This document shows, in pieces, positions 863 to 14,990 of a stretch of 14,990 nt of DNA (position 1 is its first letter; each line of letters begins with the position of its first letter). Origin of the DNA: a virus (taxonomy: Duplodnaviria; Heunggongvirae; Uroviricota; Caudoviricetes); the IMG/VR virus record IMGVR_UViG_2660238423_000033, one strand, 5' to 3'. Below the pieces are notes generated by a model that saw only the letters and a list, made by a program, of their open reading frames with translations, did no database searches and was not told where the DNA came from. The position numbers were made by a program, and so were the translations under genes.

Positions 863-1144
863 TTACCGCCGCAACCGCTCCGGCTTCTTCCAGTGGTACG
901 TGATTTTCTCCTTCTCCCGATACAGTTCAACGCGGCGATTGTAGGCCAGCATTTCAAGAACGCGGATCCGTATGTCGCGCATATCCGCATCATTAAGCTG
1001 GATACCATCACGGCGCATCACCTCAGCAACAACACGCGCATAATTTTCGGCTGTCACGCTGTCCGGCTGCGTGGTCTGTTCGTCAGCCTGCTGGCTGATT
1101 CCAGAGACGCGGCGGATTAATCGCAGTATTTCGGCTTCTGTCAT
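863..1144 (-). CDS. hypothetical protein (93 aa), last gene of the packaging operon
   Basis: ATG at 1144 with GAGG about 9 nt upstream, directly after the terL stop (1158). No family recognised (MTEAEILRLIRRVSG...). Confidence 0.5.
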   Translation of the reverse strand: MTEAEILRLIRRVSGISQQADEQTTQPDSVTAENYARVVAEVMRRDGIQLNDADMRDIRIRVLEMLAYNRRVELYREKEKITYHWKKPERLRR

Positions 1145-1157
1145 GCTGCTGACCTCA

Positions 1158-2819
1158 TTACACCCCGCTAAATTCTTCCAGTTTCTGGCGGTGGCTGTCG
1201 CTTATATCAAAAGCAAAATCCTCATGCTCTGCCTGGAATGTACCAAACGCCATCAGCGCCGCTACGCTCGGGTCTATCTTGTTCGGTGATTTTTTCTTGT
1301 TCGGCTTGATATTGGCGTTCGCGTCACTCTGCATCACGACGTTACTCATCGACCAGGACAACACCGGATCGCCACGATGCACAATCACCCTGCGGTTAAC
1401 AAAAACTTCGAACGATTTCGCCGCCGGACTGAATCTGAGGTAGGTTTGCGGGAACGGCTCCACCTCAAAACCAGCCCCCTGTAATTGCGTCCTGAGATGC
1501 GTGGCGTTCCACGTATCAAAGCCCACCAGCCTGATATTAAATTTCTCCGCATCCTGCATGATGTCATCTCTGATCCGGTCGTAATCAATGCAGTCACCTG
1601 GCGTTGTGCGTATCCAGCCCGCTTTAGCCCACTGGCGATAGACAGCGCGGTTTTTATTGGCGGGGTTCTGTAGCTGGAACTCCGGCAGATAATGACGGGA
1701 AACCAGCATGATATTTTTACCGACCGGAAAGGCATAGCACACGCTGGAAATATCGCTGGTTGATGATAAGTCCAGCCCCGCGTAACACTCCTGCCCGTGT
1801 AAATCTTCCTCCGTGAACGTTCCGGCACACTCAGCCCATGCGCCGTTACCCATCCACGGGGTAGCCCCCTGGCACCAGATATTAAATCGCTTTGTCATCA
1901 TCTCCACCCACTGCGACGGAATACCCCGCGCTTTCTGGATGGTTGAGGCCAGTTTTTCACGATCGACGGAAACATCAATATTAGGGTTCGCCTTTATCCA
2001 CATCGCCGGATCATCAACCTCGTTTTCGTCGTCCAGCTCGTAAATCAGTACAAAAATTGAATCGTTAACCTCTTCGCCGTCCAGGATCTGGCAGCAATAA
2101 TCATAGTGCTGTTTACAGGCTGAAACGACGTTGCTGCCTGATGTGGTAATGGCAAATAACAGCCCTTCGGGACGTGCGCCCATCCCCAGCTCAAGCGCGG
2201 AATAAACGCCGTTATCGGGGTGCAAGTGGTATTCGTCCACGATGGAAAGGCTTGGGTTTGTTCCCTCGATGGTTGCCGCTTTTGCTGCCAGCGGCTTTAA
2301 CAGGCTGTTGCTTTTCGGGTGTATCACCTTATGCGCCTGAATATTCACCCGCCTGCGTAACGGTCGGGATAAAAGGCACATCTGACGCGCATCATCAAAG
2401 ACGATCCGCGCCTGGTCACGGCTCACCGCTGCGGTGTAGATATCCTGCTGACCGTTCTCCATAATCAGAAACCAGTTAGCCAGAATCGCGGCGGTCGTGG
2501 ATTTCGCATTTTTGCGCGGCACTTCGATAAAGGCGCTCGTGTATTTGCGCCGTCCGGTGGCCTTAACCTTAAAGCCGAGGATGCACGCAAAGGCGAACTG
2601 CTGCCACGGCTCCAGCTCAATGGGTCTGCCACGCATCGGTCCTTTTACGTGCGGGCACACCCTGGAAAAGGCAATAAACCGCTCCACAACCTCACGATCG
2701 AACGTGTAAAGGGGGCTTTTAAGGTCCGAAAAGTACCGTTTAACGGCCTGTTTCAGCCGTTTACAGGCCGGAATTTTGCCCGTTTTTACGTCTTCTGCGT
2801 ACTTATTCCAGGCGGTCAA
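1158..2819 (-). CDS. terL: terminase large subunit (ATPase/nuclease)
   Basis: 553 aa with a characteristic TerL N-terminus (WNKYAEDVKTGKIPACKRLKQAVKRYFSDL) and typical length. The start codon is TTG at 2819 with AGAGGA 6 nt upstream; it overlaps the terS 3' end by 17 nt. Confidence 0.9.
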   Translation of the reverse strand: MTAWNKYAEDVKTGKIPACKRLKQAVKRYFSDLKSPLYTFDREVVERFIAFSRVCPHVKGPMRGRPIELEPWQQFAFACILGFKVKATGRRKYTSAFIEVPRKNAKSTTAAILANWFLIMENGQQDIYTAAVSRDQARIVFDDARQMCLLSRPLRRRVNIQAHKVIHPKSNSLLKPLAAKAATIEGTNPSLSIVDEYHLHPDNGVYSALELGMGARPEGLLFAITTSGSNVVSACKQHYDYCCQILDGEEVNDSIFVLIYELDDENEVDDPAMWIKANPNIDVSVDREKLASTIQKARGIPSQWVEMMTKRFNIWCQGATPWMGNGAWAECAGTFTEEDLHGQECYAGLDLSSTSDISSVCYAFPVGKNIMLVSRHYLPEFQLQNPANKNRAVYRQWAKAGWIRTTPGDCIDYDRIRDDIMQDAEKFNIRLVGFDTWNATHLRTQLQGAGFEVEPFPQTYLRFSPAAKSFEVFVNRRVIVHRGDPVLSWSMSNVVMQSDANANIKPNKKKSPNKIDPSVAALMAFGTFQAEHEDFAFDISDSHRQKLEEFSGV

Positions 2820-3159
2820 GCTCGTCCTCTTCTTCTGTTTCCGGTGGGTTTTTACGGCGGCTTATCGGGTCAAAACCGAGCAAGGAGGCCATTTTTATCA
2901 TCACCCTTTCAGCGTCTGATTTCGCGCTTAATGCGGGGTTTCTGCTCTCGCCGCCCTGACTGTTAACAATGCTGAACCCGCGCGCCGCAAGGTCTGCGAC
3001 GGCTTTCCGGTAAATGGAGTAGTTGACACAATACAGTTCCAGATTGCTCCAGTCGGCGGGGGTCAGGTCTCCCCGTTCCGCAAGCTGCCGCGATTTTTCC
3101 CGCCACTGCTTCACGGCGATGTCATCCAGGTAGGCGGGGGCTTTCGGTGGTCTTGCCAT
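2803..3159 (-). CDS. terS: terminase small subunit, P27 family
   Basis: 118 aa; MARPPKAPAYLDDIAVKQWREKSRQLAERGDLTPADWSNLELYCVNYSIYRKAV resembles P27-family TerS. Sits immediately upstream of terL. Confidence 0.8.
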   Translation of the reverse strand: MARPPKAPAYLDDIAVKQWREKSRQLAERGDLTPADWSNLELYCVNYSIYRKAVADLAARGFSIVNSQGGESRNPALSAKSDAERVMIKMASLLGFDPISRRKNPPETEEEDELDRLE

Positions 3160-3447
3160 GCTTATTTTTCGTCAGATTATTTTTCAAAAAATTCCCGTGC
3201 ATAAAAATTTGAGGAGGCGTTCGGTGCCCGGCGGGGTCGGGTTTGTCCTGAAAACGCCCCCCACCCCGTCATACAGCCTCATCAGCGATTGCGGAAACAT
3301 TCCATAACCTCGCGGTCACGGTCGGTTAATCGCTTCGCTGTGATGCGTTCTGCGCGTCCTGACGCTTTATCTTTATGCCCTGTTTCCTGTGTCTTCCATG
3401 CGTCACGCTGCCTTATAAGTCCACGGATAAGGCGGTTTTGTTCCCGC
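3160..3447. other. non-coding HNH-terS intergenic region, candidate cos (cohesive end) site
   Basis: 288 bp without a credible ORF between the HNH endonuclease and terS, containing a GC-rich tract (ggtgcccggcggggtcggg ... cgccccccaccccg). In HK97-like cos phages the cos site lies between the HNH gene and terS. Inferred, not demonstrated. Confidence 0.3.
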
Positions 3448-3888
3448 TCATTCATCAGCGTCATACATCCAGTTATTGCGGTTAGCGGCCCGTTCTTCCT
3501 CTTCATGAAATCCACCTGCGGCACGCTTGCTTTTTGTTGCCGGATCAAGCCATTTCGTTTTCTGGTTATGACACGCCTGGCACAATGGTTGATGGTTCCA
3601 TTCGGGCCAGAAGAGAACATCATCACCGCCATTAATCGGGATAATGTGATCCACCACCACGGCGGGCGTATATATCCCCTTCTCAAGGCATCGCACGCAT
3701 AACGGGTTTTTACTCAGATACATGGCGCGGTATTTGTCCCACTGTCTGGAGTACCCACGCGCGCGGCGGTGTCCTCGTCTGGCATCCTCTGCACGCCATG
3801 CCGCCCGCCTGTGCTCCTCACACTTGCCGGACTTCACGCGCCTGTTACAGCCTGGTTCTGTGCATCGTCTTAATGGTTGCCACGGCAT
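3448..3888 (-). CDS. HNH endonuclease (packaging-associated)
   Basis: 146 aa; Cys-rich N-terminus (CTEPGCNRRVKSGKCEEH) and an HNH core (VVDHIIPINGGDDVLFWPEWNHQPLCQACHNQKT). ATG at 3888 overlaps the connector stop by 1 nt. Confidence 0.85.
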   Translation of the reverse strand: MPWQPLRRCTEPGCNRRVKSGKCEEHRRAAWRAEDARRGHRRARGYSRQWDKYRAMYLSKNPLCVRCLEKGIYTPAVVVDHIIPINGGDDVLFWPEWNHQPLCQACHNQKTKWLDPATKSKRAAGGFHEEEERAANRNNWMYDADE

Positions 3889-4184
3889 CAGTACACCCCC
3901 ACATCACGGTAAGCCGTCCAGAGCGCGCCTATCGTCATGGGTACGCGCGTTTTTGCGTTATCCGCTACCAGCTGGCGATTCTCGTACAGGTGAGCGATAA
4001 ACATCATGCAGCCAATCTTTATGGCTGGCGTGAACTCCAGCCCGTCATCAAAGCGCCTGCCTATATGTATCTGGCACGCCTCAAGCGATGCGGCAATGTA
4101 TCCGCTGATTAACTGGTCTTCCTCGTCGCCATCGATGCGGCAATGGAGTTTCACTTCTTCCAGGGTGATAAGTTCTTCTGTCAT
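3888..4184 (-). CDS. gp6-like head-tail connector protein
   Basis: 98 aa; MTEELITLEEVKLHCRIDGDEEDQLISGYIAASLEACQIHIGRRF matches the gp6-like connector pattern. Start overlaps the upstream stop (ATGA). Confidence 0.7.
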   Translation of the reverse strand: MTEELITLEEVKLHCRIDGDEEDQLISGYIAASLEACQIHIGRRFDDGLEFTPAIKIGCMMFIAHLYENRQLVADNAKTRVPMTIGALWTAYRDVGVY

Positions 4185-4519
4185 TTTTCCGCGCCCTCAC
4201 GACAAAGAATTTCAAGGCGTGTCCTGGCGGCATCCGGCAGCGGCTGCCCGATGATATTCAGTACACGCCCCGCCAGCGGCCCCGTACTGACCTTTATCCG
4301 GCTGGTGGCGTTGATGTCCTTCCGGTACCGTATCCAGATCCTTACGGTACCAATCGCCAGCTCTGCACCCGATGAAATGGCCTCCTTGCTGCTGATCATG
4401 TTCACGCTTGCCCAGAGTGTGTGACCGTCCTCCCACGTTTCGAGTATTTCGCCGGTTATATCCCTGGTCTGTTTCAGGGTCTGAATCGTTACCCTGTCAC
4501 GCAGTCGCCCTATGTTCAT
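4181..4519 (-). CDS. head closure / head-tail joining protein (likely start at 4519; ORF track extends to 4561)
   Basis: MNIGRLRDRVTIQTLKQTRDITGEILETWEDGHTLWASV...VRIWIRYRKDIN fits the phage head-tail joining family. The ATG at 4519 overlaps the portal stop (ATGA) and has GAGGGAG upstream. Confidence 0.65.
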   Translation of the reverse strand: MNIGRLRDRVTIQTLKQTRDITGEILETWEDGHTLWASVNMISSKEAISSGAELAIGTVRIWIRYRKDINATSRIKVSTGPLAGRVLNIIGQPLPDAARTRLEILCREGAEK

Positions 4520-5727
4520 TCCGGTTTTTCTCCCTCGCTGATTTTTACTTCCTGTTTCCATGCCTGGCTGAACTCATCACCACCATCACGCGGGGACAGC
4601 CCTTCACGTTCGCGGGCTTCGTTCGGGCACATAACGCCGGATTTGATGCCGCGTTCATAGGTGGCAAAGCGTTCGCCAGGTGTGGCCCGTAACAGGTCCG
4701 CGCTGTCAAACTCCACCTGATACCGGATACCAGGTACAGGCGAGGCCACCAGCAGGGCGTTTTTTATCTGCTGCTCAAAGTTCGCCAGCCACGGGCGCAT
4801 CGTCATAGTGAGAAATGCGCGGCTTGCCTCGCTGAAATTGCTGTAGGTGCTGTTGCTGTATTCCTGCAAAAAAATCGGCGAGACGTTGAACATTCGGGCG
4901 ATGTCTTCAATGGTGAAGCGACGGGAGGCCAGCCATTCAGCATCCTGATTACTCATGCCCAGCTGCTGATAGCTCATACCCCCTTCAAGGATGGGCGTTT
5001 TTCCGGCGTTTCTGGCCCCTTTGTAGCGTTCCAGTGCGGCTAATGCCTGTTTGCCTTTCACGCCGTCCAGCCATTCGCCTGACGTGATAACCCCTGCCGC
5101 CATCATGCCATCACGCATCACGCTCGCGCCGTGGCGTTGTTGGGCCAGCCCAAGCCCCAGCGATTCGCGGCAGATGGTTACAGGTGAGCGCCCCATAAAA
5201 CCGTCATCCGTGGAGTAACGAAGGTGGAGAACCTCCCACGGTAAATAGTTGCGGGTGTTTCCGGTGTAGGCGTCAGTGATGCAGTAGCGCCAGTTGTGTT
5301 CGCCTGTCTGCTCCACGTTCACCGACTGCGGCGGGTAAGGATGTAAAGCCACCGGAAAACCATCACGCCCCCACTGAATCACCGCATAAGCATTACCGTT
5401 TAACAGGCAGTGGCGGATCATCATTCGCTTAAACTGGTAGGGAGTCTGCCACGCGTTCGGGCGCTCGTTGAGGATGTGATCGACCGGATGAGAATCAAGC
5501 CACTCTCGGGCCTCCTTCCCCTTCTCATTGCGTACCAGGTACAGGTAACACGGCATGGTAGCCACCGCCTCAGAGATGACCGTGACGGCGTTCATGACGG
5601 CGGGCAGTGATTCCGCTGTCCCCGATGATACGTACTCACCCGACCCCGTGTTCGATGTGCCGGCCAGCGCCATAAATTCATCCAGCGTCATGCTGCGCTG
5701 CTCTTTTTTTCTTCTGAAAGGCCACAT
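4516..5727 (-). CDS. portal protein, HK97 family
   Basis: 403 aa; N-terminal region (SLPAVMNAVTVISEAVATMPCYLY) and length are typical of HK97-family portals. ATG at 5727 is preceded by GGGGGTG. Confidence 0.9.
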   Translation of the reverse strand: MWPFRRKKEQRSMTLDEFMALAGTSNTGSGEYVSSGTAESLPAVMNAVTVISEAVATMPCYLYLVRNEKGKEAREWLDSHPVDHILNERPNAWQTPYQFKRMMIRHCLLNGNAYAVIQWGRDGFPVALHPYPPQSVNVEQTGEHNWRYCITDAYTGNTRNYLPWEVLHLRYSTDDGFMGRSPVTICRESLGLGLAQQRHGASVMRDGMMAAGVITSGEWLDGVKGKQALAALERYKGARNAGKTPILEGGMSYQQLGMSNQDAEWLASRRFTIEDIARMFNVSPIFLQEYSNSTYSNFSEASRAFLTMTMRPWLANFEQQIKNALLVASPVPGIRYQVEFDSADLLRATPGERFATYERGIKSGVMCPNEAREREGLSPRDGGDEFSQAWKQEVKISEGEKPE

Positions 5728-5728
5728 A

Positions 5729-6301
5729 TCACACCCCCGCTAAATCCGCCCACCAGCGGCGATTATCCGCACGCGGCATTTTTTCGGGGTGCTGCTCATA
5801 CAGGGAACGGCGGGCCAGCTCCACGCCGGAATCAGGGTAAGCCGGTACGGATGTAACGGTAATTTCGTACAGTTCCGCCACCAGCACGGTGCGCACGCAT
5901 GGATCTGTTGTGGTATCCCATACATCCTTACGGGAACGAAAGCCAAAGCTCATGCCGGATATATCACCACGTTTAACCAGTTCGATAACGTCACGCCCTG
6001 TGCTGGTATCCGGTGGGGTAAGTTCAAAGCGTAACCCTGTGTCGTCCTCTTCCAGTTTCAGCGTGCCGGAACGGGTGCGCCCCAGTAACATGCTGTGGTC
6101 ATGCTCATACAGGCCGCGAACGTCATTACCCGCCGCAAGCCACTCAGTAAACGCCCCCCGCTGGAATTTTTCGTAAAACTCCCCCCATAGCAGTTCTGAA
6201 AGCTTATCCCAGCGAACAACGTAGCCCGTCAGCGTACCGGCTCCGCTGGTGGTGATTTCCGATGACCGGATTTCCATACTCTTCATAATTTTTTCACCCA
6301 T
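5729..6301 (-). CDS. prohead maturation protease, HK97 family (true start probably the ATG at 6286)
   Basis: Motifs GYVVRWDKLS, GAFTEWL, LYEHD, LLGRT, DDTGLRFEL and GDISGMSFGFR resemble the HK97 prohead protease family. The first ATG (6301) has no Shine-Dalgarno; the ATG at 6286 has GGTGA 7 nt upstream. Confidence 0.85.
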   Translation of the reverse strand: MGEKIMKSMEIRSSEITTSGAGTLTGYVVRWDKLSELLWGEFYEKFQRGAFTEWLAAGNDVRGLYEHDHSMLLGRTRSGTLKLEEDDTGLRFELTPPDTSTGRDVIELVKRGDISGMSFGFRSRKDVWDTTTDPCVRTVLVAELYEITVTSVPAYPDSGVELARRSLYEQHPEKMPRADNRRWWADLAGV

Positions 6302-6340: not shown

Positions 6341-7498
6341 TTAATCGTCGTCCTGTGGCAGTTCCAGAATCTTGATCGCGTTCGAATCCACCACGCCACC
6401 GCCTAAATATTTCTGCGTGAAAATTTTGATGAAGCCCGGCTCTGTGAGGTTGTCCGGTCTGGTGCGAACACCTGTTTCGTGATCAACAATGTAGTAACCG
6501 CGTTTGAAGTCACCCAGGGCAATAACGTTATCAGGCATAAACTCCAGATATTCGACCGGAAGGCCCAGCAACGTATCAGGATCACCCGCCTGTAAACGGT
6601 CGCGCCAGATGTAATCACCGTTCGCGTTCTTCACCTTCTGAAGTTTTGCCGCCGTCGTGGAGTTAACCACCCAGACCGCGTTTTTGCGGTATTTTTTACG
6701 TAATGCAAATTTCAGGTCGATCAGCGGGTCCGCAGATGTCCACGCCAGAGATTCGGAAGGTTTAATTACCTGCAACGTACCAAAATCACGCTCTTTGTCG
6801 TTCTTCTCTGCACGGGGTACGGATAAAAAACCTTTTGCTTTTTTGTCACCGTCGCCCACAACCAGATCGCTTTCTTCGGTTTCCGTGAAGGTGTCGCCAA
6901 TCTCACCCGTCAGCCATGAAAGGATGTCCACATCGGAAAAATCCACGATTTCCTGTGTGGTGCGCGGGTACGCATAGACCGGATACAGCTTAATGCTCAC
7001 CTCGTTAATCTGCGGGGTGCTGGTCTGTTCGCGTGCCTTACCCTCTTCACCGTGGTTAACGGTCGCACCGCCAGCGGAAACAAGCTGCTTAAACTCGTTG
7101 CTGCTGATTTTCTTCACGGTACAGATGCGGCGCATGGTGGATTCATCCGCCAGCATTCGCATGATTTCGGTGTTCAGCTCGGGGATAACGGTATAACCAC
7201 CATCAGCGGGAACGCCTGTACTTAATGCGCGGGTTTCACCTGTCAGGATGTAGTTGCGTAGTTCTGCGGGGTCAGTGGTCTGACTGCTTTTACCTGGCTT
7301 GCTGCGCTCTTCGTCTGCAATGGCTTCAAGGCGGGAAATGTCTTTATCGAGGGATTCAGCTTTAGTGCGTAATTCGTCAAATTTTGCGCCCTCAGCATCG
7401 TTAAGACTGCGGTTTTCTTTTTCCGCGTTCTCCAGCATGTCGCGCATCTGATTTTTAATGGCGGTTTTCTGCTGGCGTAATTCGATTATTCTCGGCAT
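6341..7498 (-). CDS. major capsid protein, HK97 fold, with N-terminal coiled-coil (delta/scaffold-like) region
   Basis: 385 aa; N-terminal about 90 residues are charged and heptad-like (IIELRQQKTAIKNQMRDMLENAEKENRSL...ISRLEAIADEE), as in HK97 delta domains. Position next to the protease and portal supports the call. ATG at 7498. Confidence 0.8.
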   Translation of the reverse strand: MPRIIELRQQKTAIKNQMRDMLENAEKENRSLNDAEGAKFDELRTKAESLDKDISRLEAIADEERSKPGKSSQTTDPAELRNYILTGETRALSTGVPADGGYTVIPELNTEIMRMLADESTMRRICTVKKISSNEFKQLVSAGGATVNHGEEGKAREQTSTPQINEVSIKLYPVYAYPRTTQEIVDFSDVDILSWLTGEIGDTFTETEESDLVVGDGDKKAKGFLSVPRAEKNDKERDFGTLQVIKPSESLAWTSADPLIDLKFALRKKYRKNAVWVVNSTTAAKLQKVKNANGDYIWRDRLQAGDPDTLLGLPVEYLEFMPDNVIALGDFKRGYYIVDHETGVRTRPDNLTEPGFIKIFTQKYLGGGVVDSNAIKILELPQDDD

Positions 7499-8138: not shown

Positions 8139-8411
8139 TTAGCTGTCTGGGTAATTACGCCATATTTCATCGCTTACACCATCTATACCCATTTCAGCAT
8201 AAGTGCGATCTACTGCCTTTCTCAGGTCTCTGAAGTTATCCGGCGGCTCCGGTGGCTTCTGTGCCTTCCTGGAACATTCCAGCCGTCGCATCGTAACCTG
8301 ATGCCGTTCCTTGTCTGTCTCCACCAGCAGCATGACTTCACCCCATCGCGCCGCCGCCCTCCGGTAAAAGCCTTTCGCCTCGAGTTCTTCCGCTATGCGG
8401 TCATGTACCAT
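8139..8411 (-). CDS. PerC-like transcriptional regulator (91 aa from the ATG at 8411)
   Basis: MVHDRIAEELEAKGFYRRAAARWGEVMLLVETD resembles the PerC family N-terminus as I remember it. GAGGGGG lies 5 nt upstream of the ATG at 8411; the longer track ORF would overlap ssb. Confidence 0.5.
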   Translation of the reverse strand: MVHDRIAEELEAKGFYRRAAARWGEVMLLVETDKERHQVTMRRLECSRKAQKPPEPPDNFRDLRKAVDRTYAEMGIDGVSDEIWRNYPDS

Positions 8412-8421
8412 CGCCACCCCC

Positions 8422-8832
8422 TCAGAACGGAATACCGTCACCGTAAGGGTCATCGCCTCCCGCTGGTGGCTGATTACCCTGTGTGCCTGTGGTTTTGCGT
8501 CTGTTCCCGCCAGGAAGTGCCGCACGGGCACTGATTACGCTGTCTGCAATAACCTGATAACCCTGCCGCGTTTCCCCATTCTGTCCGGTCCACTGGCTGA
8601 CCTGCATCGTGCCGGATACGCTGGCAACGTCGCCTTTTTGATGTTTAGCCAGGAAGTCGGCCTGCTTACCAAATGCGATGACCGATAGCCATAACGTCGC
8701 CTGCCCATCCTGCGCCTGACTACATGGCAGCGATACCGCCATACGCGCCAGCGTCATCGGTGTACCCTTGCTGGTCTGTTTTACCTGCGGGTCGTCCACC
8801 AGCCGCCCGTAAGCTGCTATCTGTGCTGTCAT
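8422..8832 (-). CDS. ssb: single-stranded DNA-binding protein (short, 136 aa)
   Basis: OB-fold core WLSVIAFGKQADFLAKHQKGDVASVSGTMQVSQWTGQNGETRQGYQVIADSV, a Gly/Pro/Gln-rich linker and the canonical acidic C-terminal tail ending DGIPF. GGAGAGGTGG precedes the ATG. Confidence 0.8.
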   Translation of the reverse strand: MTAQIAAYGRLVDDPQVKQTSKGTPMTLARMAVSLPCSQAQDGQATLWLSVIAFGKQADFLAKHQKGDVASVSGTMQVSQWTGQNGETRQGYQVIADSVISARAALPGGNRRKTTGTQGNQPPAGGDDPYGDGIPF

Positions 8833-9395: not shown

Positions 9396-11150
9396 TTATA
9401 AAAACGCGTCGCACTCGTCTGTTGTTATTGCGTTAGTCTGCGTTACTCCCTTAACTTTCCGCGTAATATATTCATGTCCGTAAACTTTCGCGGCTGGCTT
9501 CATAGCCTTGCCAAAGTCATTTACGTTTAGCGGTTTGCTCCTGCCTGCGTACGCCATAAACGCCAGATAGACGCGGTAAAGGCTGTTTCTGGTCGTGTAC
9601 TTCACTGAATCGCCACCGCCGCCCATCATCAGGCCGCGTGCTTCCTCCAGAAAATTCAGGAACTGGCAAAACTCAATAACCGGATCCGTCTGTTGCTTTA
9701 TTGCCAGAGCTTCATCACCGTCACGCTGTTCCAGTAGTAAAGCCCGTGCCTTCTCAGGGTCGGTAAAGTTCGCCAGCAATCGGCGGATAATGACAGGGAT
9801 TTCAGCCGCGATCTTTTCCGGTAGCTCCCTGTCTTTTTCGGCCTCACTGACGATATTGTCGAAACGGAAAATCACGCGACGACGTGCCACACCTCCGGCC
9901 CGTTCGGTGAATATCATCGGGTTATTGTTGGTCGCCAGCACCACCGCCCTGATTACAGCCGTGAAACGCTTTTCGTATTTCGGGTTAATTTCCACGGGGT
10001 CACCGCCCGTGATTTTCTTGATGCCCGTTCCTTCGCCTGTATATTTCGGCTGGTCAGCCAGGACGATAAGACGACTCCCGACAACCTGCGCACGTCCACC
10101 AGCATCATCAAGCGATGTCATTTCAGCGCTTACCGTGTTCTGTTTCCCTGCCAGAAGGCTGGCTATGTGCGTGAATGTACTTTTACCGCTCCCGCCGTCT
10201 CCGGTGGCCTCAATAAACATCTGCCAGTCGTACCGGTTCGCCATAATCATGTACAGCGCGGCACATATACGCATCATCTTGCGCGGGTCTTTTCCGGCTG
10301 CGTGCTCAAGCCATTTATGAAAGTTTGGCGCGTTATCGCGGATGTTCTCCCCTGGTGCTGGTGGCGTGTACTCAATGCCGTTGTGCGTGGTGATCCAGTT
10401 CTCCGGCGTGTGCGGGGAAAATTCCCCCGTTTTCAGGTCAAGCGCACCATTGGCGAACGGCAGCAAATCGCCGGACGGCTCGCCCATTGGTTCGGCAATA
10501 ACTTTTAACGCTTCCACGGCGTTATTGATTACGCGCTTGCTGAAAGTGGCCCTGTGCTCTGAATAGATCGCCACCATTTCGCGGCTAAGTTCCATTGTGC
10601 TGACCGGACACCATACCCCGCCGCGCCATACGTGAACGATTTCACTTTCAGGATGTACGCAAACGCCATCAAAGCGATCGGCAAGCAGCTGCGCGCGCTC
10701 ACTGTCCGCCATCTGCGAAAGTTGCGCCTTTTGCTTTACCGGAAGCTCAATGACCAGACCATCAGAAAGATTCTGGCGCTCACGAGCCAGATATTCGCGC
10801 CAGTTCTCCACCTTCTGACCGTGCATACCATCAGGGTAAAAATTTGCATCCTGTACGCCTGCCGCCGCCAGCTTCTGACCAATCGCCTTTATCATTACTG
10901 GCGCAAGATATCCGGCCCTGAATATGCGCACGGATTTTCTGCCTTCCGGCACAATTTGCAGCTTATCCAGTTCGGATAACTGCTGCTCCCCAAGCCACAC
11001 AGGAGGCTCATTATCTCCGGCCATACGCGCGTCATGTTCCTGCCATTGTTTTGCGTGTGACCAGGCATCACTACCCGCAAAAATAATGACTTCAGTTTCT
11101 TTGTGTTTTATGCCGCGTGACTGCTGTTTTACGTTCGGTGCCAGTTTCAT
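9396..11150 (-). CDS. primase/replication initiator (Pri-Rep), P4-alpha/D5-like with a Walker A NTPase
   Basis: 584 aa; Walker A motif ATGDGGSGKST mid-protein, with the N-terminal half consistent with a primase region. ATG at 11150 has AGGGG upstream and overlaps the upstream stop. Confidence 0.85.
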   Translation of the reverse strand: MKLAPNVKQQSRGIKHKETEVIIFAGSDAWSHAKQWQEHDARMAGDNEPPVWLGEQQLSELDKLQIVPEGRKSVRIFRAGYLAPVMIKAIGQKLAAAGVQDANFYPDGMHGQKVENWREYLARERQNLSDGLVIELPVKQKAQLSQMADSERAQLLADRFDGVCVHPESEIVHVWRGGVWCPVSTMELSREMVAIYSEHRATFSKRVINNAVEALKVIAEPMGEPSGDLLPFANGALDLKTGEFSPHTPENWITTHNGIEYTPPAPGENIRDNAPNFHKWLEHAAGKDPRKMMRICAALYMIMANRYDWQMFIEATGDGGSGKSTFTHIASLLAGKQNTVSAEMTSLDDAGGRAQVVGSRLIVLADQPKYTGEGTGIKKITGGDPVEINPKYEKRFTAVIRAVVLATNNNPMIFTERAGGVARRRVIFRFDNIVSEAEKDRELPEKIAAEIPVIIRRLLANFTDPEKARALLLEQRDGDEALAIKQQTDPVIEFCQFLNFLEEARGLMMGGGGDSVKYTTRNSLYRVYLAFMAYAGRSKPLNVNDFGKAMKPAAKVYGHEYITRKVKGVTQTNAITTDECDAFL

Positions 11151-13772: not shown

Positions 13773-14990
13773 TTATTTTCTTCTGGCTACTGGTAGCGTG
13801 GTTACGTTTTCATGTGTTCCCGCCAGTATCCCTAACCGCTCCGTCCACATATCCAGCGCATTGCGTTTAGCATCCAGATAACGGGAATGATTATAAACTC
13901 GCTGCATTCCTGGCATCTGATGACCTGTAAGCTGCTCCACGACATGCGGATCAACGCCTAAATCGTTCAGCATGGTTGTAAAGGTGCGCCGGATGTCATG
14001 CAGTGACCAGTGAGGATGATTAAGCCTCCTGTGCGCTAATCTTCCATACTGCGATACGCTGGCCTCCTGTTTCGCTTCCCCCAGCAATAAGCCCGTGTGC
14101 CTGTTCTGCTCCACCAGCTGCGTGACGAACGGCAGGATCGCTTCCGGTATGGGCCGGAATATTGCGACCTTCGTTTTGCTGTGCTCCTTCGGAACGGTCC
14201 ATAGCATTTCCGTAAAATCCCACTCCCCGATCTCCGATAGCCTCAGTTCTACCGTCCTGGCTCCGAAGACAATCAGGAGGCGGATTAACGCGACGTAGTA
14301 AGGGGAAAATATTTTTTTGTCCAGTGCCTGCAATAATTCGCCAAGTTCTTTGTTACTTAAGACACGTTCGCTTATATCCGGTTTTTTCCCAACGTCCGCC
14401 ACGTTCAGATCGTCCAGAACGTTGCTGATTGCATAGCGCCGCCTACGGCAGAACTTAAGCGCCTGTTTGCACGCCTGTAGCACGAATCCGGCAGTAACAG
14501 GCGTTCGCTTTGCCACCTGGTCAAAACAGGCCAGCCAGTGCCGTAGCTCGCATTTATCCAGCGGCATAGCACCAATCTGCTGTATTACGTGATTATTAAG
14601 TCGCCTTTTCAGGGCGATATAATCCACGCGGTTTTCCTTTACGTAATACTCAAGCCAGTAGGTGAGCGCATCGCCAACCGTTACGGGCTTTAACGCTTCC
14701 TGTACGGTGTAATTCATCTCATGACGTGGATTTTTCCCCTCAGCCAGCCATGTGCGACACTGTGCGGCTTTTTCCCTGGCTGCTTTCAGGCTCAGATCAG
14801 GATAACTTCCCAGCTTAATGCGTTCGGGTCGTGTCTCCCTTCCCGTTCCGGCCCTGTATGTGAAATACCAGGTCAATTTCCCTGATGTTAAATATTTCAC
14901 GCTCAGGTTTCCGCCATCACTATAAAACGTGTTTTTCTCCGCTGGCTTACCATGAAGTTTCCTTAGCAAGGTATCGCTCAGTTTGTTCAT
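13773..14990 (-). CDS. int: tyrosine site-specific integrase, P4 family
   Basis: 405 aa; N-terminal arm-binding domain (FYSDGGNLSVKYLTSGKLTWYFTYRAGTGRETRPERIKLGSYPDLSLKAAREKA) and a C-terminal catalytic region (HDIRRTFTT, LTGHQMPGMQRVYNHSRY carrying the catalytic Tyr). The ATG is the last three bases of the window. Confidence 0.95.
   Translation of the reverse strand: MNKLSDTLLRKLHGKPAEKNTFYSDGGNLSVKYLTSGKLTWYFTYRAGTGRETRPERIKLGSYPDLSLKAAREKAAQCRTWLAEGKNPRHEMNYTVQEALKPVTVGDALTYWLEYYVKENRVDYIALKRRLNNHVIQQIGAMPLDKCELRHWLACFDQVAKRTPVTAGFVLQACKQALKFCRRRRYAISNVLDDLNVADVGKKPDISERVLSNKELGELLQALDKKIFSPYYVALIRLLIVFGARTVELRLSEIGEWDFTEMLWTVPKEHSKTKVAIFRPIPEAILPFVTQLVEQNRHTGLLLGEAKQEASVSQYGRLAHRRLNHPHWSLHDIRRTFTTMLNDLGVDPHVVEQLTGHQMPGMQRVYNHSRYLDAKRNALDMWTERLGILAGTHENVTTLPVARRK

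Follow-up and report, generated by a model that had tools for sequence, protein, structure and literature searches.

Where are the ends of the packaged genome of this satellite, and is its DNA cut at a fixed cos site? In the window, that is, the whole stretch of 14,990 bp analysed here, the first-pass annotation had proposed a cos site in the gap between an HNH endonuclease gene and terS, together with unit-length packaging from it. Our results support the site between HNH and terS, and they support unit-length cos packaging in relatives only, where linear unit-length assemblies have both of their ends at this place. We consider it probable (roughly 85%) that the 122-bp intergenic region at 3160-3281 is the cos site of a capsid-forming PICI (cf-PICI), with its core at 3177-3267, and that its architecture follows that of the HK97 cos. 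This placement between HNH and terS has three independent grounds: the ends of the assemblies of relatives, the conservation of the region at a fixed length, and the match of a family profile to the HK97 cos junction. From these we infer the position of the cos within a base or two. Cos-type packaging by cf-PICIs has already been published, and the mapping given here is an addition to that work, not a contradiction of it. The position of cos and the sequence of the ends were not given in the cf-PICI texts that we searched (Alqurainy et al., 2022/2023; He et al., 2025).

Identity and Gene Content of the Element

Judged from its genes, the window is an EcCIEDL933-like cf-PICI, since both the gene set and the gene order match those of the capsid-forming PICIs, of which EcCIEDL933 is the prototype. 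All long ORFs of the window are carried by the minus strand, and the cf-PICI gene set occupies ~15 kb, running from int to beyond terL (Table 1). No tail or lysis genes were found among the window ORFs scanned with Pfam and PHROGs. The HNH protein shared 39% identity over 85 aa with gp74 of HK97 (E = 3e-19), and TerL shared 27% identity over ~500 aa with HK97 gp2 (E = 2e-47). Gene content and order were also like those of EcCIEDL933 and KpCIDSM30104, for which helper-phage induction and helper-tail-dependent transfer are known from experiments (Alqurainy et al., 2022/2023; He et al., 2025). Packaging of unit-size DNA with cohesive cos ends was reported for cf-PICIs in the same studies (Alqurainy et al., 2022/2023; He et al., 2025), and cohesive cos ends are on record for KpCIDSM30104, which resides in DSM 30104 (He et al., 2025).

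Of 5426 complete E. coli genomes, 533 carried the HNH-terS block, at 578 places. At a coverage of at least 80% the number was 515 of 5426, and the block was chromosomal in every case. The copies of the block in O157:H7 were 97.8% identical to that of the window. The cos core described below was counted at 579 places in 534 complete E. coli genomes. It was never separated from the HNH-terS block, for which the counts were 533 genomes and 578 places, and orphan cores lacking the block were not found in this set. Between the replication and capsid modules of the satellite there are also genes for a PerC-family transcriptional activator (PF06069, 3e-44) and an SSB (PF00436), located at 8139-8531 and 8422-8832 on the minus strand.

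Table 1. Genes and predicted cos features of the window. Strand is left empty where a feature has none; nick coordinates count from the predicted cut, the first base of the left end being +1.
Feature	Coordinates	Strand	Basis or remark
Integrase	13773-14990	-	Pfam/PHROGs
D5-type primase	9396-11150	-	Pfam/PHROGs
Major capsid protein	6341-7498	-	Pfam/PHROGs
Prohead protease	5729-6301	-	Pfam/PHROGs
Portal	4516-5727	-	Pfam/PHROGs
Head completion protein	4181-4561	-	Pfam/PHROGs
Head-tail connector	3888-4184	-	Pfam/PHROGs
HNH endonuclease, gp74-like	3448-3888	-	Pfam HNH 1.7e-08; phrog_144 1e-44
60-aa gene, phrog_3173, function unknown	3282-3464	-	RefSeq/PGAP CDS WP_000174068.1
Box 1, G-run box GGGGTGGGGGGCGTTTTCAGGAC	3245-3267; nick coordinates ~-54 to -32	-	Left palindrome arm inside
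Hypervariable spacer	3230-3244; family nick coordinates -36 to -16		Holds right palindrome arm
GGGCAC, predicted last double-stranded bases of right (HNH-side) end	3224-3229	-	Contig end ...AAGGCAC
Predicted 10-nt cohesive end, CGAACGCCTC (minus), GAGGCGTTCG (plus)	3214-3223		Contig-end gap
Predicted nicks	3213/3214 (minus strand), 3223/3224 (plus strand)		From 10-nt gap in relatives
+1 to +13, CTCAAATTTTTAT, predicted left genome end	3201-3213	-	Most conserved segment of the region
+14 to +29, GCACGGGAATTTTTTG, candidate TerS site (cosB-like), T-tract +23 to +28/29	3185-3200	-	HK97 position
+30 to +37, AAAAATAA, A-rich end of conserved core	3177-3184	-	Conserved in most lineages
terS, P27-family small terminase, 118 aa	2803-3159	-	PF05119 1.3e-23; phrog_83
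terL, HK97-type large terminase	1158-2819	-	Pfam TerL_ATPase + TerL_nuclease

A Small Gene Within the Supposed Gap

The 288 bp at 3160-3447 had been taken as non-coding throughout, which proved to be wrong. The half of this stretch next to HNH is taken up by a 60-aa CDS, which overlaps the stop codon of HNH; the gene calls for HNH and terS on either side were confirmed. It is annotated by RefSeq/PGAP in an identical genome (WP_000174068.1), its product matched phrog_3173 (E = 7.5e-37), and the frame was retained, together with the motif ...RDRE.MECFRNR and the stop that follows it, across 62 distinct protein variants, relatives differing by synonymous (Arg) codon and stop-codon changes. The actual intergenic region is 3160-3281, 122 bp in length. 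The accompanying claim that the packaging module has no other non-coding gap fails for the 288 bp and survives in a reduced form: the 122 bp are the largest gap in the block from capsid to terL.

The phrog_3173 protein, encoded between HNH and cos, is basic and has the C-terminus ...RDREVMECFRNR. Elements of the Enterobacteriaceae, Proteus, Erwinia and Serratia types carry the gene; those of the Xenorhabdus, Gilliamella and Pasteurella types lack it. In the EcCIEDL933 literature, mutation of a "hypothetical gene 1792" was reported to reduce the transfer of EcCIEDL933. The 60-aa ORF may or may not be this gene; another candidate is a 93-aa ORF immediately 3' of terL (863-1144, minus strand), which matches phrog_1561 (unknown function, 1.5e-55).

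Conservation of the Intergenic Region in Relatives

Relatives were gathered in three ways, by the DNA motif, by TerS protein in viral contigs, and by TerS alignment with one genome per species, the last being the sole sample that is unbiased as to the motif. The TerS-found sample comprised 80 loci, with TerS identity down to 63-66% and two Pasteurella elements added. The loci came in part from Shigella, Klebsiella, Citrobacter, Enterobacter, Serratia, Erwinia, Pantoea and Proteus, and further from Providencia, Xenorhabdus, Photorhabdus, Gilliamella, Frischella, Avibacterium and Aeromonas. Positions were numbered with the C of CTCAAATTT as +1.

Our results revealed that the region is an element of fixed length in ~80 species of Enterobacterales, Orbales, Pasteurellales and Aeromonas, with the layout G-run box, hypervariable spacer, C-rich 10-mer, CTCAAATTTTTAYGCACGG and T-tract. 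The order is almost free of indels. On the coding strand, GGGGT(G/A)GGGG and an A/T-rich tail ending in GAC AAA are followed by the spacer and G(G/A)(C/A)AC; then come the C-rich 10-mer, CTCAAATTTTTA(C/T)GCACGG, three variable bases and a run of 6-8 T. After the T run there is usually GAAAATAA, then 20-35 variable bases and the ATG of terS. None of the 73 distinct sequences in the TerS-found sample lacked the box with its A/T-rich tail, and the G(G/A)(C/A)AC motif, GGGCAC in the window, was conserved in the family. Mean pairwise identity reached 0.92 at +1 to +13 and 0.80 at +14 to +29, where GCACGG and the T run are conserved; it was 0.70 in the 10-mer and 0.45 in the spacer, and it fell to 0.32-0.41 further out on either side. 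The +1 to +13 pattern occurred once in the window and had zero matches in shuffles. Further downstream, GAAAATAA was kept in most lineages and replaced by CAATAGCAG in one Xenorhabdus clade.

For the spacer, 108 distinct versions were counted among 240 distinct family sequences, and close relatives were seen with near-identical flanks yet unrelated spacers; no covariation of the spacer with the G-run box was seen. The predicted 10-nt cohesive end existed in 36 lineage variants, all C-rich, with the consensus C[GA][CA]CC[GC]CC[CT]C. Because these 10-mers are lineage-specific, the ends of different cf-PICIs would not anneal together. In Xenorhabdus hominickii (L323), the G-run box upstream of terS is made of five tandem GGGGTA units.

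The sequence types upstream of the nick and those downstream of the T-tract reassorted freely, giving 42 four-gamete quartets; examples are found in the homologous loci L003, L004, L280 and L302, which correspond to 3177-3267 of the window. At the level of sequence, this pattern suggests that the cos core may be a recombination joint between a head/HNH half and a terS/terL half. When the intergenic DNA was searched against a phage database, only three records matched, none of them with an annotated cos feature.

Genome Ends in Relatives

The record vB_KppS-Ant (LR881103) is linear, 16,548 bp long, and derives from particles whose DNA was sequenced with Nextera XT. It represents the induced element of K. 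pneumoniae DSM 30104, being >99% identical to part of the genome of that strain, and by its gene content it is the cf-PICI KpCIDSM30104. The record ends with ...TTTTCAGGAC (...GGGGTGGGGGAGGTTTTCAGGAC) and begins 22 nt ahead of terS. In ATCC 13883, which is the same strain as DSM 30104, the integrated copy was 100% identical to the Ant flanks over 1400 and 1800 nt and was longer by 69 bases, which lie between the flanks and are centred on CCTCA/AATTT. When linear DNA is tagmented by Tn5, loss of some tens of bases is expected at both physical ends. The cos model predicts a cliff in Ant coverage on each side of CACCCGCCCC in the ATCC 13883 element. The public label of LR881103.1 is Escherichia phage, and its source paper describes it as filamentous. 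The same record (L002) carries at 2036-4333, after terL, a 2.3-kb ORF annotated as "tail length tape measure protein", which is missing from the window.

The viral metagenome contig IMGVR_UViG_3300022664_000095 (15,518 bp) was colinear with Ant over its whole length. Its integrase was in the middle of the contig, which indicates that the element is excised, as the prophage order would be different. Its start reads CTCAAATTT / CTCAAATTTTTACG / CTCAAATTTTTACGCACGG, with the ATG of terS at nt 61, and it ends in GGCAC (...GCAAGGCAC / ...CCGCAAGGCAC). Neither a terminal repeat nor permutation was detected in the Ant record or in this contig. Between the two contig ends, exactly 10 nt (C[GA][CA]C[CT]GCCCC) were present in 44 of the 45 integrated relatives that shared both flanks, and the 10-nt spacing between the end motifs held family-wide (340 of 349 members). 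The 10 nt were missing, not duplicated, as would be expected of a 3' overhang trimmed by end-repair; a 5' overhang would be filled in and retained. The overhang length of 10 nt is supported in relatives, and a 3' polarity would hold if the library chemistry was of this kind. Location of the ends and the 10-nt gap are established for these relatives; the element of the window probably shares both.

The ends of other contigs were of less value. One end of the L063 contig maps to position 3223 of the window and the other falls exactly at the start codon of int, which suggests trimming; the support from this contig is weak, and either trimming or a repeat-induced break is possible. Contig breaks at conserved/variable junctions, in samples with several related elements, could explain L063, but they are a much less likely source of a contig that has unit length and lacks 10 nt. 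For L184, the seeming end 33 nt beyond CAGGAC proved to be a storage boundary inside the contig (2410-6568 of 22,479), and the ends of L022, L109 and L122 were discarded as storage boundaries like that of L184. The Xenorhabdus contigs starting near terS (L342, L349 and L351) belong to multi-copy draft genomes and were treated as repeat breaks.

Weak Match to the HK97 cos Junction

The conserved element is flanked by HNH and terS, which is the position of an HK97-type cos, and it adjoins the genes of an HK97-like TerL and a gp74-like HNH. In the linear assemblies of relatives, terS stood at one end and HNH with the small ORF at the other. The HK97 genome was circularised and searched on both strands with an nhmmer profile made from 73 distinct cf-PICI regions. 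The top match (39680-39747) lay across the cos junction and was oriented to terS; it was weak, with E = 0.012 and 10.3 bits, and the next-best match in the HK97 genome had E = 0.9. In the profile alignment the HK97 cut was 1 nt from the cut deduced from the contigs. The HK97 junction reads ...GGGGGGGGGATCAAATC...ATGACCGCCGCCAAA/GTTTGAATTTAACGCTAACCCGATTTTTTTAG..., with the ATG of terS at +50.

Alternative Readings of the Region

The first-pass annotation had also described a GC-rich block flanked by AT-rich sequence. The block is real (70.7% G+C at 3229-3269, in the top 1% of the 41-nt windows of the whole stretch), and so is the AT-rich flank on the terS side (26% G+C at 3160-3212). The block contains an imperfect inverted repeat, 3232-3241 / 3259-3268, complementary at 9 of 10 positions and separated by a 17-nt spacer, which could be read as cosN with nicks placed symmetrically in the spacer; the right end of the Ant record does fall in that spacer, after CAGGAC, at window position 3245. 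However, repeats of equal quality arose in 256 of 2000 dinucleotide shuffles (12.8%), so that the inverted repeat alone is not significant, and the palindrome was not kept in relatives: its right arm falls in the hypervariable spacer and is missing from most of them, which makes the palindrome a feature of the lineage of the window only. On these two grounds it was rejected as the functional core. As for the Ant record, it comes from an end-losing tagmentation library and lacks 69 bp, whereas the unit-length contig extends 21 nt beyond the Ant end and stops at GGCAC; the HK97 alignment likewise puts the cut further downstream. A cut within the palindrome is therefore very unlikely, and the predicted nicks lie 6-16 nt closer to terS, flanking 3214-3223.

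Conservation directly upstream of terS would also be expected of a transcriptional or translational control element for terS-terL (promoter, terminator, antiterminator or leader RNA), with cos located elsewhere, and the T-tract and A-rich sequence near the ribosome-binding region, as well as the complementarity of G-run and C-run, would be in keeping with it. But Rfam gave no match at E <= 1, and neither a terminator-like site nor, on the coding strand, a promoter-like one was found; the RNA fold was no better than that of shuffles (z = -0.52), and no covariation accompanied changes of the G-run box. A structured RNA or a terminator was rejected on the Rfam, terminator and folding results. Control of terS-terL would moreover leave unexplained both the excised linear genome assemblies that end here and the match to the HK97 cos junction, and we rate it slightly below even a cut in the palindrome; the conserved block might still have a secondary regulatory role. 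The least probable of the alternatives is headful (pac) packaging that starts near terS and leaves no fixed cohesive ends. Many PICIs and SaPIs do package by pac with their own TerS (cf-PICI literature), but here HNH adjoins an HK97-type TerL, an arrangement known beside cos sites, and gp74 stimulates cos cleavage in HK97; the packaged DNA forms a discrete unit-size band and cohesive-end concatemers are on record (Alqurainy et al., 2022/2023; He et al., 2025). Furthermore, the assemblies are linear and unpermuted, and their ends fall within one small region.

Proposed Packaging Mechanism

With a cos site at 3160-3281, packaging might proceed as follows. Excision and replication of the element would yield concatemers, in which its own TerS would bind GCACGG and the T-tract at +14 to +29 (3185-3200). 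TerL, aided by the gp74-like HNH, would then introduce the two nicks that flank the C-rich 10-mer 3214-3223, one in each strand, and leave 10-nt 3' cohesive ends. The CTCAAATTT end (3213) would enter the small capsid first, with packaging toward terS and terL, and the next cos would end it, the side with HNH, the small ORF and the G-run box (3245-3267) being the last to enter the satellite-made small capsid. In this scheme the G-run box would have a position comparable to that of lambda cosQ, and it may be a cosQ-like or an accessory-factor site. The predicted 3' polarity draws on the missing 10 nt and on analogy with HK97. Binding of TerS to the T-tract element is likewise proposed by analogy, of position and composition only, because the cf-PICI TerS has no detectable similarity to that of HK97; the element is thus a candidate site.

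The contrast between conserved and variable parts allows a further reading, which we think unlikely: the cos may have two layers, a conserved core that would serve any terminase of the cf-PICI clade and a fast-evolving part that would confer specificity or incompatibility, with the core acting as a recombination joint. The core would then consist of +1 to +37 and the G-run box, conserved across bacterial orders, and the fast part of the spacer (-36 to -16) and the lineage-specific 10-nt cohesive end. If this were true, the fast part would perhaps be read by HNH or by the phrog_3173 protein, co-resident cf-PICIs would neither cross-package nor co-anneal, and the cos core would be the preferred joint at which head/HNH and terS/terL halves are shuffled.

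A cos mapped at the level of bases has several uses. It would define the minimal packaging signal for DNA delivery particles based on cf-PICIs and provide a substrate for the biochemistry of P27-family TerS. Furthermore, CTCAAATTTTTAYGCACGG...T-tract could serve as a marker for cf-PICIs and for true genome ends in viromes. The cf-PICIs are widespread, with the cos core in ~10% of complete E. coli genomes, and they cross species with borrowed tails only; the present results show their cos to be conserved across several orders of Gammaproteobacteria.

Comparison With Known Systems

In HK97, the cohesive ends are 3' overhangs of 10 nt, cleavage at cos is stimulated by the HNH protein gp74, and TerS binds +15 to +29, where a G:C step and the A/T-tract are essential (HK97 literature). 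The cf-PICI site resembles that of HK97 in several respects. In the concatemer, each has the HNH gene on one side and terS on the other, and both have the same order, from a G-run ~45-55 nt upstream, through a C-rich 10-mer at the cut, to a G/C element and T-tract at about +14 to +30. The T-tract starts at +24 (to +30) in HK97 and at +23 (to +28/29) in cf-PICIs; HK97 carries GGGGGGGGGATCAAA upstream of the cut at about the distance of the cf-PICI G-run box; terS is ~50-55 nt from the cut in both; and the cohesive end has 10 nt in HK97 and, as predicted here, in cf-PICIs. A cos of the HK97 kind at this place is what a specialist would predict, and it leaves the understanding of cf-PICIs unchanged.

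However, the two systems are not the same. The similarity of the cos sequences is marginal (10.3 bits), and the TerS proteins belong to different sequence families, the 118-aa cf-PICI protein being of the P27 type (PF05119) and HK97 gp1 of another. No similarity between the two was detected (hhalign probability 0.2%), gp1 had no Pfam family above threshold, and the TerS of the window showed no detected homology to solved structures. The window thus combines an HK97-like TerL, HNH and cos layout with a TerS lacking detectable HK97 similarity. The module also shows a circular shift in gene order relative to HK97, the head genes of cf-PICIs preceding HNH, and in the window an extra small gene (phrog_3173) separates HNH from cos. 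Unlike HK97, a cf-PICI puts a genome of ~15 kb into a small capsid that the satellite itself encodes.

The cos of lambda (cosQ-cosN-cosB) and that of cf-PICIs share a tripartite logic, with an upstream element that is packaged last, a nicking site, and a TerS element before the terminase genes. Lambda differs in its 12-nt 5' overhangs, the lack of an HNH protein and its IHF/R-site architecture, and its sequences are unrelated to the cf-PICI cos. Other satellites, the cos SaPIs (e.g., SaPIbov5) and P4, carry the cos of their helper and are packaged at unit length (cf-PICI literature). SaPIs of the SaPIbov5 type and P4 borrow both terminase and cos from the helper, whereas the element in the window has a cos, TerS, TerL and HNH of its own.
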